Below are positions 2,968 to 54,667 of a stretch of 64,000 nucleotides of DNA, piece after piece. How positions within the stretch are numbered: position 1 is the stretch's first letter; every line of letters begins with the position of its first letter. This stretch comes from a virus (Duplodnaviria > Caudoviricetes). The stretch lies in the IMG/VR virus record IMGVR_UViG_3300020399_000132, positions 113,420 through 177,419 of that record; one strand, 5' to 3'. Both the position numbers and the translations under genes were made by a program. The notes beneath the pieces were generated by a model that did not search any database, was not told where the DNA came from, and was given only the letters and a program-made list of their open reading frames with translations.

Positions 2968-3210
2968 TTATTTTTTTGGTTCGTCTGGAAGGTATCGTCT
3001 ACTCTTTTTAAGGATCCTATCTTTTCTCTTCTTTTTTTCTTTTTGCTTCTCTTTTTCCTTATCTGTTAGAGCTAGCATAGGAGGACTCTCTTGAGTATCT
3101 GAATACGTTGGTCTAACAGCAGCGGCAAATGATGTAGTTGAAAGCTTTTCAGTGGGGTTGAGATGAGGATGAGCTTCGAAGAATGCTCCAAATTCTTTAA
3201 ATGTTTTCAT
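2968..3210 (-). CDS. putative internal head protein
   Basis: N-terminal MKTFKEF matches T4 internal-protein capsid-targeting sequence; basic C-terminus. Confidence 0.6.
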   Translation of the reverse strand: MKTFKEFGAFFEAHPHLNPTEKLSTTSFAAAVRPTYSDTQESPPMLALTDKEKEKQKEKKKRKDRILKKSRRYLPDEPKK

Positions 3211-3225
3211 ATTACATGGACATTT

Positions 3226-3702
3226 CTACTTTAATTTTTTAGGTGGGTGCTTGTGAGTTTGTTCTCTTGTTATTGTAACTTCTGATGCTTCCAGAACCAC
3301 GTTGGATCCAATTTGTGAAGCAGGAGGTGGAATAACTACATATTGTTCTATGTTGCCCCTTTTATCTAAGCTATGGCTAACTACTACTAATTCTTCCTCA
3401 CCCAAACTTGAGTGTCGAACATGAGTAGCTCAATTATGTTCCAGAGCTTTTTCAGAGATTGTGTCTAATTTATCAGCTATCCACGTATAGGGGTCACCAT
3501 CGCGAGCTTTTGCTACTCCGTATGGCATATCTGTCTGCCAGTGATTCATTAATGCATCATATAACTTTGGCAAATCTAGTAAATCTTCTTTACCATCTTT
3601 AAATGCTTTGTAATCTTTAGCATGTGCTTTGAGAATATTTTGGAGTTCTCGATCCATGCGTAATTCTTGTTCATCAATTACATGCTCTATGAATGTCTTC
3701 AT
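3226..3702 (-). CDS. putative internal head protein with in-frame UGA (candidate selenoprotein, 158 aa)
   Basis: MKTFIEH capsid-targeting-like start; TGA at 3432-3430 followed in frame by 67 sense codons to TAG at 3228-3226; SECIS-like hairpin directly after the TGA. Confidence 0.7.
3383..3429 (-). promoter_or_regulatory. candidate bacterial SECIS element
   Basis: GCUACU-CAUG-UUC-GA-CACUCA-[AGUU]-UGGGUG-AG-GAA-GAAUU-AGUAGU; apical loop with G at position 2 followed by U, 21 nt after the UGA. Confidence 0.6.
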
Positions 3703-5984
3703 CCGGTTAATTTCCTTTTCTTATTCCATACTCCGAGAAAACCACCCTTATAATATATGTGTGGTTCTCCACCCTTTTTGAATGACTTCGCTAGGGTCTT
3801 TTCAGCTTTTACAACATCTTTTTTATCTACCCATAGCTTACCATCTTCCCAATAGCTTTTAATACCAGCGTCATCTAATGCCATATTAGCTTGGAGCTTA
3901 TTACTCTCGTCAATTTTCTTTTTAGCTGCTCTATCGAATTTAAATGCTTGATAATCTTTCTTAGCTGCTTGGTAATCTGCGCGTTTCGATTTAAGATTTT
4001 GTCCTGGTGGTTGACTAGTGTCTCCAACCCTTGAAGCGGCTCGATCTGATACAGCTCTTTGTTGCCCAGCTTTCTTTTTAGCTGCTTGTCCTGCGCGTTG
4101 TAACAGGTCTTTCGAAAGTTCGTTAACGGAATTGGTTTTATCGCGGCTTTTAGCAAGAAACAGTTTGTCCCGCGTTTTCTTCTGACTGCCTACCGACCTG
4201 GCCATCATCTCATTTTTACTTGTTACCTTCTCCACTGCTTTCTTAGCTATGTGCTTTATTGCTTTTCTAGCAATGAACGCACCAACTGGTCCGAGTTCCT
4301 TAACCTCAACTTCGTCATAAAAAGTACCTCTGGTAGCTTGCTTTCCTGGATTTCTCCGCTTCTCTCTTCCGACTGTAGTTCTAAACAGACTTTTGGAAAT
4401 TGGACCATCCGGTTGTTTTTCAACTTTTCCACCTTTCTTTTTAAAAGCAGCGATTTTGTCAGCGTAATCGCTTTCTTTTTCATCAATAACATCTTCCTTT
4501 TTAAAAGCTGTATCCCGTTGCTTGACATCGACGGCCGCACTGAATTTTCCGGCTTGTTTCTCTCTCTTTGCTGCCTTTTTGCCTGCTTCGTCAGCACCAA
4601 AAGCATGTCCTTTACCTTTCACTCTCGTCGCCCAATCTTGTGCGTCTCTTTGTGTTGCGGCATCCTTCTTTGCTGCGCCGGCTGCGCGGTTTAATAGTCC
4701 AGTTGAGATTTCATCAACAACTTCTCCTGCTCTTGCCTTTTTAAGCTTAGCTAGAGTTTCTGGAGTGGTAGGAACTGCTCTAGCCTTCTTCCTCATCTCT
4801 GATTCTTTTCTTTTATGATCATACATATCTATGCCGGATGAATCAACTTCATTAACTTTATCTCTTAACTCAGCGAAAGTCTTCTTATTACCTTCAACAT
4901 AACCAGTATACTTATCTTTCTTAGGATTCTGATTTGGGTAACCGTGTTTCTTTACTGATTCTCTCTTCTTTATTGTGCCGACATATTCATCTACCATTTT
5001 TCCATCCTTGTAATGAGCGGCATGTTTATGATCACCGCCGCCTTTACGAATCTTATCTAATTTTTTATCATCCTGATATCTACTTGAACTATAATTTTGA
5101 CCAGTTTTTGTATTTTTAATACTATACTGCGGTCTTTTTAAACTTTTTATTAACTCTAGTGCATTTTTGTCTTCATCAACTTCTACTTCTTCATTTGTCC
5201 GGAATCCAGCTTGTACTGGATTATCTATTGTACCAAAAACATATTGATGCAAATCTTTAGGTACAATCTTTTTGGCTTTTGCTTCCATATCTCTTTGAAC
5301 ATATATTCTGTCTCCAAAATACATAGAGTTACCATACTTTGCTGGTATACCTTTTTTCTTTAAAAGTGCGATTGCTTTCTCAGAATCTTTTTTAATTTCT
5401 GGATGCTTCCTACCTTTAGGATCGGGTTTTGACTTGTCTCTGCTGTCTTCAACAATTTCTACTTCTTCTAATACACGTTTTAAAGTAGTTTTCTCTCTTT
5501 TTGTTAATCCACCAATGCCATCAACCCATGCATCTTTGTCTGCCGTAGAAGTTTTATCGCCCATTTTCATCTTGAATTTTTTAACATAGTCATTCAGATT
5601 TGCTTCATCGATGTAGAACTCTTCTTTAGCAAGTAAAACTGCTATCTTCTTTAGATTTTCTCTTTCTGATTTGCTAAGCATTTTTAATGCTCTATCATTA
5701 GCTATTTTCTCAAGAGATTTGGCATATTCTTTTGTAGATTCATCAACATCTACACCCCTTATCCTGTTAAAAAATTTTTGATACGTTTCTTTATGGGTAA
5801 GGCCTAACTTCTGTAGTCTTTTCTTTTTCTCATCCGTATCTGTTAGCGCTTTGGATCTTATGTCTGGCCGATCAGGCTTCACTTGACCCATAGAATCTGG
5901 TTTACACTGCGACGCCAGAGCAGACGTTTTGGACAATCCAGGAGTGTCGCAAAATGCAGGTCTCTCTTGGAGGTTTTCTGACAT
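3699..5984 (-). CDS. large Lys/Glu-rich putative internal head (ejection) protein
   Basis: 761 aa; recurrent V/I-D/N-E and EEVE junctions resembling gp21 cleavage sites; repeated E(I/L)SxxLLxRAxxAAKK units; near-consensus late promoter AATAAATA at 6028-6021. Confidence 0.6.
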   Translation of the reverse strand: MSENLQERPAFCDTPGLSKTSALASQCKPDSMGQVKPDRPDIRSKALTDTDEKKKRLQKLGLTHKETYQKFFNRIRGVDVDESTKEYAKSLEKIANDRALKMLSKSERENLKKIAVLLAKEEFYIDEANLNDYVKKFKMKMGDKTSTADKDAWVDGIGGLTKREKTTLKRVLEEVEIVEDSRDKSKPDPKGRKHPEIKKDSEKAIALLKKKGIPAKYGNSMYFGDRIYVQRDMEAKAKKIVPKDLHQYVFGTIDNPVQAGFRTNEEVEVDEDKNALELIKSLKRPQYSIKNTKTGQNYSSSRYQDDKKLDKIRKGGGDHKHAAHYKDGKMVDEYVGTIKKRESVKKHGYPNQNPKKDKYTGYVEGNKKTFAELRDKVNEVDSSGIDMYDHKRKESEMRKKARAVPTTPETLAKLKKARAGEVVDEISTGLLNRAAGAAKKDAATQRDAQDWATRVKGKGHAFGADEAGKKAAKREKQAGKFSAAVDVKQRDTAFKKEDVIDEKESDYADKIAAFKKKGGKVEKQPDGPISKSLFRTTVGREKRRNPGKQATRGTFYDEVEVKELGPVGAFIARKAIKHIAKKAVEKVTSKNEMMARSVGSQKKTRDKLFLAKSRDKTNSVNELSKDLLQRAGQAAKKKAGQQRAVSDRAASRVGDTSQPPGQNLKSKRADYQAAKKDYQAFKFDRAAKKKIDESNKLQANMALDDAGIKSYWEDGKLWVDKKDVVKAEKTLAKSFKKGGEPHIYYKGGFLGVWNKKRKLTG

Positions 5985-27296: not shown

Positions 27297-27539
27297 TTAT
27301 CCCCACATTTGTTGTTCTAGCCTTTCGACCTGTTTAATGTCTTTGCGAAAATCTTTTATTCGTTGTCTTTCTGCTTCTTCCCTCTTTAGCCTTTTTGCCA
27401 TAGAAGGTTTAACAAAATATCTTCGTTTTTTCACCTCATTAAGAGTTCCTTCACGAGACACTACTTGTTTTAATTTTTGTAAAGCTTTTATAATATTTCG
27501 CTGGTCTGAATCCTTATGACCAATCTTTATTGAAATCAT
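27297..27539 (-). CDS. rpsU: ribosomal protein bS21
   Basis: NIIKALQKLKQVVSREGTLNEVKKRRYFVKPSMAKRLKREEA. Confidence 0.9.
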   Translation of the reverse strand: MISIKIGHKDSDQRNIIKALQKLKQVVSREGTLNEVKKRRYFVKPSMAKRLKREEAERQRIKDFRKDIKQVERLEQQMWG

Positions 27540-54010: not shown

Positions 54011-54667
54011 TTAAAGCCTTGACAAAAACTTTTCAAAGGATGAAGTCAAGGCTGATTCATCCGGTTTTACTTTTATAAATTCTTTGACTATAGAGTCTTT
54101 AATATCTTGAACATCTGCTTCTTTTAAAATACCATTATTCCAAATCCATTCTCTGCCTTCCATGATGCCTTCTACGAAGGCCATTGGAGCAGAAGGATCA
54201 GCAACAATGTCTCCAGCTGTTGCAAGATGAAAATCATTTTGTACGATCTGGGAACCACCTAACGATTTTAGTGTTCCCATTCCTCTAGAACTTACTCCTA
54301 ATTTAGCACCTTCATCAATTAAATTTTTGACAATTTTACCATATGGAGTTTCCATAATTTTTGCTTTTCCAATAAAATTTGCACCATCTTGTTTGAGTTC
54401 CTTAACCATATGTGAAACTCTTTCAAGATTTATAGTAGGTCCATCTGGATGACCTAATTCTCCGAATGCTCTGTTGGTATCAATATATTGTTTAGAATAT
54501 CTAGATACTTCGTTTTGCATAGTTTCTAGTGGATAGACTCGTCCGTTTCTATTTTTTTGTTCTGCTTGTAAAAATACACCTTTGATATAGTAATTTTTTT
54601 GATCTGTAGAATTATCCTTTTCTACAAGCATTTCTACGTCTTCCATTAGTTCGCAAATGAGTTTCAT
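54011..54667 (-). CDS. gp21: prohead protease gp21
   Basis: GVFLQAEQKNRNGRVYP, GELGHP, GVSSRGMG, DIVADPSAP. Confidence 0.97.
   Translation of the reverse strand: MKLICELMEDVEMLVEKDNSTDQKNYYIKGVFLQAEQKNRNGRVYPLETMQNEVSRYSKQYIDTNRAFGELGHPDGPTINLERVSHMVKELKQDGANFIGKAKIMETPYGKIVKNLIDEGAKLGVSSRGMGTLKSLGGSQIVQNDFHLATAGDIVADPSAPMAFVEGIMEGREWIWNNGILKEADVQDIKDSIVKEFIKVKPDESALTSSFEKFLSRL

Follow-up and report, generated by a model that had tools for sequence, protein, structure and literature searches.

Cells are well known to recode UGA as selenocysteine (Sec), as are a few viruses of animals; the selenoproteins of eukaryotic viruses are represented by the glutathione peroxidase homologues of poxviruses. 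These viral proteins, which are covered by a review of recoding (PMC8310308), are captured host enzymes with a SECIS element in the 3'-UTR. In bacterial genes with a SECIS element inside the ORF, of which E. coli fdhF is the prototype, a single in-frame UGA is found where homologues have Cys, UGA is still a stop elsewhere in the genome, and a hairpin with a small loop and an early G-U is located directly 3' of the UGA in the coding sequence, at a spacing within 16-37 nt (PMC13188914). The criteria for such bacterial elements (bSECIS) are a loop of 3-9 nt with a G in the first two loop positions, an upper stem of 4-16 bp, a distance of 16-37 nt from the UGA and a minimum free energy (MFE) of at most -7.5 kcal/mol (PMC13188914).

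The phage gene described here shares all these features with the bacterial genes, but it is carried by a phage that encodes no Sec machinery and the UGA has a His-rich context instead of a CxxU/UxxC redox motif. Like the genes of eukaryotic viruses it is virus-borne and would rely on the Sec machinery of the host, whereas its domain is phage-specific and its SECIS-like element is of the bacterial type within the ORF. We found no report of a phage-encoded selenoprotein in the searchable literature, and the words phage, virus and viral are absent from a review of the selenoproteome of prokaryotes published in 2026. The family did not match any of the seven families newly described in the GOS selenoproteome of 2008, GOS_A, GOS_B and GOS_C being different proteins.

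Two groups of proteins from T4-like phages are relevant for comparison. The same small domain is found in cyanophage homologues with Cys (PSSM7_192, PHM2_164 and the proteins of P-HM1 and MED4-213, annotated 'possible cytitidyltransferase'), which have in common the motif H-x-C-A-[ST]-x-V-x-H followed by H-[ST]-L, Y-x-V and a C-terminal H-x-H. These cyanophages and the present phage are both marine T4-like myoviruses; the homologues differ in having Cys (TGT/TGC), usually a second Cys 14 residues on, and no conserved hairpin. Proteins IPI-IPIII of T4 resemble the present protein in being small proteins of a T4-like phage with an N-terminus like the T4 capsid-targeting sequence (CTS) and with a gp21-like protease encoded in the same genome, but there is no sequence homology beyond the leader.

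Results

Organization of the locus and use of TGA in the genome

The source genome is a 177,419-bp IMG/VR virus record rated complete, and the window, i.e. the whole stretch of DNA analysed, is its last 64 kb. The genome has a GC content of 33.6% and the genes of a T4-like myovirus (terminase, sheath, portal, scaffold, major head protein, gp46-like nuclease and gp21-like protease), with a major head protein that shares only 64-67% identity with its counterparts from, among others, marine cyanophages and the OM43 phage Melnitz. Translation of window positions 3226-3702 reproduced the arrangement on which the original prediction was built, namely a 90-aa ORF (3702..3430, minus strand) that closes at TGA 3432..3430 and continues in the same frame for 67 sense codons, none of them Met, until TAG 3228..3226. 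The start codon of this ORF (ATG at 3702) shares the sequence ATGA with the TGA stop of the 761-aa gene upstream, for which Pfam and PHROG gave no matches. The extension does fill an otherwise empty gap, as had been claimed, since no other ORF of at least 60 aa was found across the 219-nt stretch 3211-3429. The features of the locus are listed in Table 1.

Table 1. Positions in the window of the gene, its predicted elements and the genes discussed with it.
Feature	Position	Strand	Remarks
Whole gene, predicted to be recoded	3226..3702	minus	158 codons (90 + UGA + 67) and TAG stop
N-terminal 11 residues, MKTFIEHVIDE	3670..3702	minus	resembles the T4 capsid-targeting sequence (CTS)
N-terminal domain, conserved MPYGV-KARDGDP core	3433..3669	minus	widespread phage module
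In-frame UGA, predicted selenocysteine codon	3430..3432	minus	within motif H-N-U-A-T-H-V-R-H
SECIS-like element, 54 nt, extended imperfect hairpin with the UGA at its base	3379..3432	minus	
Apical hairpin	3399..3414	minus	6-bp stem 3414-3409/3404-3399, loop AGUU 3408-3405
C-terminal domain, downstream of UGA, predicted small five-stranded beta-barrel	3229..3429	minus	
Upstream 761-aa gene, translationally coupled (ATGA)	3699..5984	minus	same arrangement in relatives
Downstream 80-aa gene, CTS-like leader (MKTFKEF...)	2968..3210	minus	
T4 gp21-like head maturation protease	54011..54667	minus	phrog_207, E = 9e-78; candidate for cutting off a CTS-like leader

By itself, an open extension of 67 codons is no rarity: at 33.6% GC it is expected by chance for an estimated 0.6% of stops, and two more uncovered extensions of 51-56 codons are present in the same genome. 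The present case stands above chance because of its conservation in relatives and not because of the length of the extension alone.

TGA is an ordinary stop in this genome and genome-wide recoding is absent, which agrees with the original description: in a crude gene set for the 177-kb genome 89/220 ORFs end in TGA, and the coding density is 92% under code 11. A genome-wide reassignment of TGA to sense was ruled out by these stops together with the presence of a single convincing read-through site; no other read-through sites and no further copies of the hairpin motif were found in the genome, leaving locus 3226-3702 alone. The phage encodes tRNAs for Cys (GCA), Val, Tyr and Asn and an odd 108-nt tRNA with a GUU anticodon. 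Neither a tRNA-Sec or suppressor tRNA nor selA, selB or selD was found in the phage genome, and a SelW-like gene was not found. Five larger relatives also had no tRNA-Sec, two sub-threshold matches there being ordinary tRNAs. Furthermore, psbA was found neither in the genome nor in five partial relatives, so the phage is not a typical cyanophage.

Several translation-related genes were observed in addition. The 108-nt tRNA (L023:8138-8245, genome about 87338-87445, outside the window) has an insertion of about 37 nt in the variable region and a GUU (Asn) anticodon; it scored 41.5 bits with the Rfam tRNA model, was missed by ARAGORN and is not a tRNA-Sec. A permuted two-piece tmRNA (L019:6658-7043, genome 6658-7043, outside the window) scored 109 bits with the Rfam model tmRNA_permuted and 61.7 bits with alpha_tmRNA, and phage-encoded permuted tmRNAs have been reported for Melnitz and pelagimyophages. 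The bS21 gene (window 27297-27539, minus strand) has close homologues (76-95% identity), every one of them on a contig of phage size or a short marine contig; one of these, which NCBI labels as a Euryarchaeota MAG, is probably a mis-binned phage contig.

Conservation of the in-frame TGA and of Cys at the same site

When the read-through product was used in tblastn, matches were obtained in the Prochlorococcus phages P-SSM7, P-HM1, P-HM2 and MED4-213, with alignments that cross the stop and have Cys opposite the UGA within H-x-C-A-[ST]-K-V-x-H. A blastn comparison of the locus with cultured phages gave no match, and an IMG/VR scan with the protein gave only three relatives, all with the N-terminal domain only. 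A search of 5.8 billion proteins returned proteins of 90-96 aa that all terminate at the same H-N and one 120-aa protein that starts just past the H-N. Both domains were found fused in an uninterrupted ORF with Cys at the UGA site in a 255-aa protein (P0007). An apparently full-length protein of 179 aa (P0001) has Trp at the site; its contig yields this protein only if TGA is read as Trp, and its DNA therefore carries the TGA too. The depositor's TGA = Trp call on a 993-bp ENA contig (L007:167-706) was an artefact that produced an apparently intact 179-aa protein and hid the UGA.

In the DNA of relatives found through the N-terminal domain, four diverged lineages had TGA at this very codon, and 67-124 conserved codons came after it. 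A degenerate DNA pattern of the motif with TGA at the Cys position was run on IMG/VR, where 19/19 matches were family members, and on marine metagenomes, where family members made up 77 of the 80 listed matches (89 were found). The same in-frame TGA was present in 61/61 distinct members of one clade from IMG/VR and marine metagenomes, and the relatives thus do not stop at the UGA as a clade-level accident. At least seven N-terminal architectures precede the UGA and most members have only a leader of 21-25 aa, in which case a stop at the UGA would leave a conserved orphan domain behind a peptide of just 23 aa.

Cys (TGT/TGC) occupied the site in 52 distinct members of the sister clade, including P-SSM7 and P-HM2. 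The residue aligned with the UGA was Cys in P-SSM7, P-HM2, P0007 and 46 distinct viral loci and neither Trp nor any other residue was seen, which is to be read within the limit that the Cys forms were gathered with a pattern requiring Cys (177 viral loci matched this pattern). Among the sequences found, the homologues thus have Cys and not Trp at the UGA position, and the domain that the original prediction ascribed to marine T4-like phages does exist, in the form HxCAxxVxH. In a tree of 113 distinct domain sequences, one branch (SH-aLRT 99) parts the 61 UGA forms from the 52 Cys forms; given that the tree was a quick search on 66 columns, only this main split is to be trusted. The split implies one switch, with UGA then kept across a deep clade.

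Close relatives (88% identity, L004-L006:3001-3249) have the N-terminal domain only (82 aa) and end at a different TGA, and the conserved continuation is absent after it. This single-domain form indicates that the two domains can exist apart.

Coding constraint across the UGA

Pairwise dN/dS values downstream of the UGA were 0.10-0.36, with dS ranging from 0.24 to more than 1, and the downstream frame is hence conserved under purifying selection as the prediction demanded. At codons -2, -1 and +1 to +6 the amino acids were kept and changes occurred mainly at third positions (e.g. Ala at +1 is encoded in four ways, and the His codons alternate between CAT and CAC). Third-position variation of this kind flanks the UGA, which means that translation passes through it in one frame, and the coding constraint around the UGA excludes a decaying remnant as well as a restart at the invariant TTG nine codons downstream. 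An assembly error is ruled out by the occurrence of the same TGA in dozens of independent assemblies. Overall, the UGA is almost certainly decoded.

Conservation of an RNA hairpin downstream of the UGA

Folding of the 54 nt from the UGA with RNAfold gave an MFE of -15.7 kcal/mol (z = -2.4 against dinucleotide shuffles, 7/200 of which folded as well) and returned the lower, middle and apical stems and the AGUU loop of the predicted structure. The lower stem pairs 3429-3424 with 3388-3383 and is followed by a 3-bp middle stem and the 6-bp apical stem, which starts 15 nt past the UGA. The spacing from UGA to loop is 21 nt, and the G in the second position of the AGUU loop lies 22 nt past the UGA. 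A loop of 4 nt, a stem of 6 bp, a spacing of 21 nt and an MFE of -15.7 kcal/mol are all within the bSECIS ranges. When the distinct sequences were compared, 34/37 UGA forms versus 11/46 Cys forms passed all four bSECIS criteria; given that the 11 Cys forms pass by chance, the bSECIS consensus alone is weak evidence. Even with the threshold relaxed to E ≤ 10, no Rfam family matched the region of the site, an expected outcome given how poorly Rfam covers bacterial SECIS elements.

The apical hairpin was located at the same place in 38/38 distinct 60-nt sequences. Codons +7 to +10 (CCA AGU UUG GGU), which extend from the 3' part of the 5' arm through the loop and over most of the 3' arm, had zero synonymous diversity in 53 distinct main-group sequences, compared with a mean of 0.36 for 36 other codons, only one of which was also 0. 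Ser and Leu have six codons each, and another conserved Leu of these genes is encoded by UUA or CUN and never by UUG. The zero synonymous change in the hairpin codons is a constraint at the RNA level and constitutes the strongest evidence for the element. The hairpin is thus present in all UGA-bearing homologues and frozen at synonymous sites, which is what the original prediction had made its test.

The variation that is seen in the stem keeps the pairing (C or U opposite G). In a subgroup with PQFG/PRFG in the place of P-S-L-G, the 6-bp hairpin is re-formed 1-2 nt further on with the GUU loop kept, and the closing pair has changed once from A-U to G-C, in a compensatory way. In the fixed register 93.9% of apical cells pair, no pair has changed on both sides and covariation was not significant, the signal being missing because the apical stem is conserved rather than co-varying.

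Domains of the predicted protein

Neither half of the product had a match in Pfam or PHROGs, and the same was true of the read-through product as a whole and of ten larger proteins in which the domains occur. A two-domain profile had 1757 representative matches, and most of those listed were to the N-terminal domain, a module (loci L028-L104) that frequently occurs as tandem copies in proteins with lengths of up to 1400 aa. The alignment of the C-terminal domain (A4) had invariant H5, C/U7, A8, H13, G17, H26 and Y37 and a near-invariant H66 in the C-terminal H-x-H. The His two codons before the UGA, the predicted Sec and the downstream domain thus make up a His-rich set of invariant residues, which we take most simply as a putative metal-binding or redox site. 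A second Cys 14 residues later is present in most Cys forms and absent from the UGA clade, so the site would not simply be the same one with Se in place of S.

AlphaFold modelled the C-terminal domain as a small five-stranded beta-barrel (pLDDT 81, pTM 0.65). Fold searches with this model returned generic small beta-barrels only (Foldseek E ≥ 0.14), and a VIA search returned only KOW, SH3 and Tudor folds (Z ≤ 5.5). Given such generic neighbours, no function is drawn for the domain. The cytidyltransferase label of the cyanophage homologues was found to be unsupported, as no such Pfam match was obtained at E ≤ 1 for the read-through product or the P-SSM7 and P-HM2 homologues.

A leader resembling the T4 capsid-targeting sequence

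The CTS of T4 is MKTYQEFIAE (PMC8442874). The leader of the present gene, MKTFIEHVIDE, is CTS-like in that it comprises about 10 aa and ends in hydrophobic-x-Glu, a likeness that is one of resemblance only, and most short-leader members of the UGA clade begin with MKT[FY]xE[FM]. CTS-like starts were found in five ORFs of the genome, i.e. this gene and four more. The other four leaders are MKTFKEF.., MKSFKEFLDE, MKSYKQFLIE and MTTFAELRE, and the genes are located at window 2968-3210 and at genome positions 95331, 67636 and 65869, all on the minus strand; the product of one gene with such a leader is a 462-aa cytidyltransferase-like protein. Together these genes may represent a set of capsid-packaged proteins. 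The original idea of a capsid-targeting leader with release of the domain by gp21 was thereby supported in part, the support coming from the likeness of the leader, the four similar starts and the gp21-like protease. From the leader, packing of the product into the capsid can be put forward as a speculation.

Discussion

On the evidence above, the gene at 3702..3226 (minus strand) probably encodes one 158-residue protein in which the UGA is read as Sec with the help of the host's SelB and tRNA-Sec. The Cys homologues, the conserved frame and the frozen hairpin all agree with the Sec insertion that was originally proposed; we infer both that the residue is Sec and that the host has the machinery. 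According to this model, the stretch of mRNA immediately after the UGA would fold into the hairpin with the AGUU loop while a ribosome occupies the codon, and would act as a bacterial-type SECIS; host SelB with Sec-tRNA(Sec) would bind this hairpin and deliver Sec in competition with RF2. The phage would contribute the message only, with SelA, SelB, SelC and SelD coming from the host; as the phage has neither sel genes nor tRNA-Sec, synthesis and delivery of Sec must then be the host's. The product would consist of the N-terminal module joined to the small beta-barrel, with Sec placed among invariant His residues (H-x-U ... H ... H ... H-x-H). The predicted Sec form is one clade inside a larger Cys-containing family of phage domains, and within this clade the UGA has persisted despite extensive divergence.

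The alternative that survives best is a programmed read-through of the UGA that needs no selenium, in which the hairpin slows termination and the codon is read by a near-cognate tRNA for Trp, Cys or Arg, giving a short product and a minor extended one. All the evidence for translation past the UGA is accommodated just as well, the phage has its own tRNA-Cys(GCA), and Sec machinery would not be needed, which would suit a possible SAR11-like host without selC. However, the short product of the short-leader members would have just 23 aa, and read-through would need to predominate in them; the conserved Cys position predicts Sec and not Trp; the anticodon of the phage tRNA-Cys is the ordinary GCA; and a hairpin at this distance from the UGA with G-U in its small loop is the kind of signal that SelB reads. 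To our knowledge, read-through by a near-cognate tRNA with stimulation from a hairpin is not an established mechanism in bacteria. We therefore consider a selenium-free read-through improbable, if clearly less so than the two explanations that follow.

Synthesis of two products, with termination at the UGA, a restart downstream (e.g. at the invariant TTG) and the conserved RNA as a start region, would account for the invariance of the TTG at codon +9 in 53 sequences and for the separate downstream ORFs given by gene callers (P0006, and the 74-aa ORFs in L008-L014). It is nevertheless very improbable given that codons +1 to +6, which precede the TTG, keep their amino acids and so are translated in frame, that the motif spans the UGA and matches the uninterrupted Cys homologues residue for residue, that no Shine-Dalgarno-like sequence was found before the TTG and that conservation is lacking at the codons close to the UGA that could serve as in-frame starts (GTG, GTT, ATC). 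A nonsense mutation, a pseudogene or an assembly error with a decaying C-terminal remnant, for which the relatives L004-L006 with their N-terminal domain only, their other TGA and no conserved continuation could be cited, can be practically dismissed because 61 distinct sequences, drawn from many independent assemblies, share the identical TGA, the codons beyond it are under purifying selection and the UGA form has a single origin and was retained through a deep clade.

The main risk to the reading of the UGA as Sec comes from the host. The alpha-type permuted tmRNA, the bS21 gene, the low GC content and the lack of psbA recall the pelagimyophage/Melnitz-like phages, a group with such features (PMC9004378). 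According to a 2026 preprint, 135 complete Pelagibacter genomes are without selC, and Sec insertion could thus not work if the host were SAR11; a correct Sec reading would imply a host outside SAR11, even though the phage has pelagimyophage-like features. The abundant low-GC marine lineage Actinomarina has the full Sec machinery (2026 preprint). No host link was obtained through bS21, for which there were no bacterial relatives in genome contigs and all protein matches look phage-borne, or through the TGA pattern in species genomes, where the six matches were all unrelated Alistipes/Rikenellaceae sequence.

A more extended reading is offered only tentatively, and we think it rather unlikely to hold as a whole: a deep clade of marine T4-like phages would pack a selenoprotein with a T4-type CTS leader in the head, trim it with the gp21-like protease and co-inject it with the DNA, so that its His-rich Sec site could serve in metal or redox chemistry early in infection. 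Under the same tentative reading, the UGA form would mark phages with Sec-decoding hosts and provide, for abundant ocean phages that are uncultured, a host clue from sequence only.

The family comprises about 60 natural UGA variants and a sister clade with Cys, and if the UGA is read as Sec it would show that a phage can depend on a dispensable and patchily distributed translation trait of its host. Gene callers systematically split or miss such genes, reporting fragments of 90-96 aa and 74-120 aa or a protein with TGA = W. The predicted Sec site, rich in His and set in a small beta-barrel, differs from the customary CxxU redox motifs and would represent new biochemistry. The Sec trait should restrict the host range of these widespread marine phages, and hence help to predict it.
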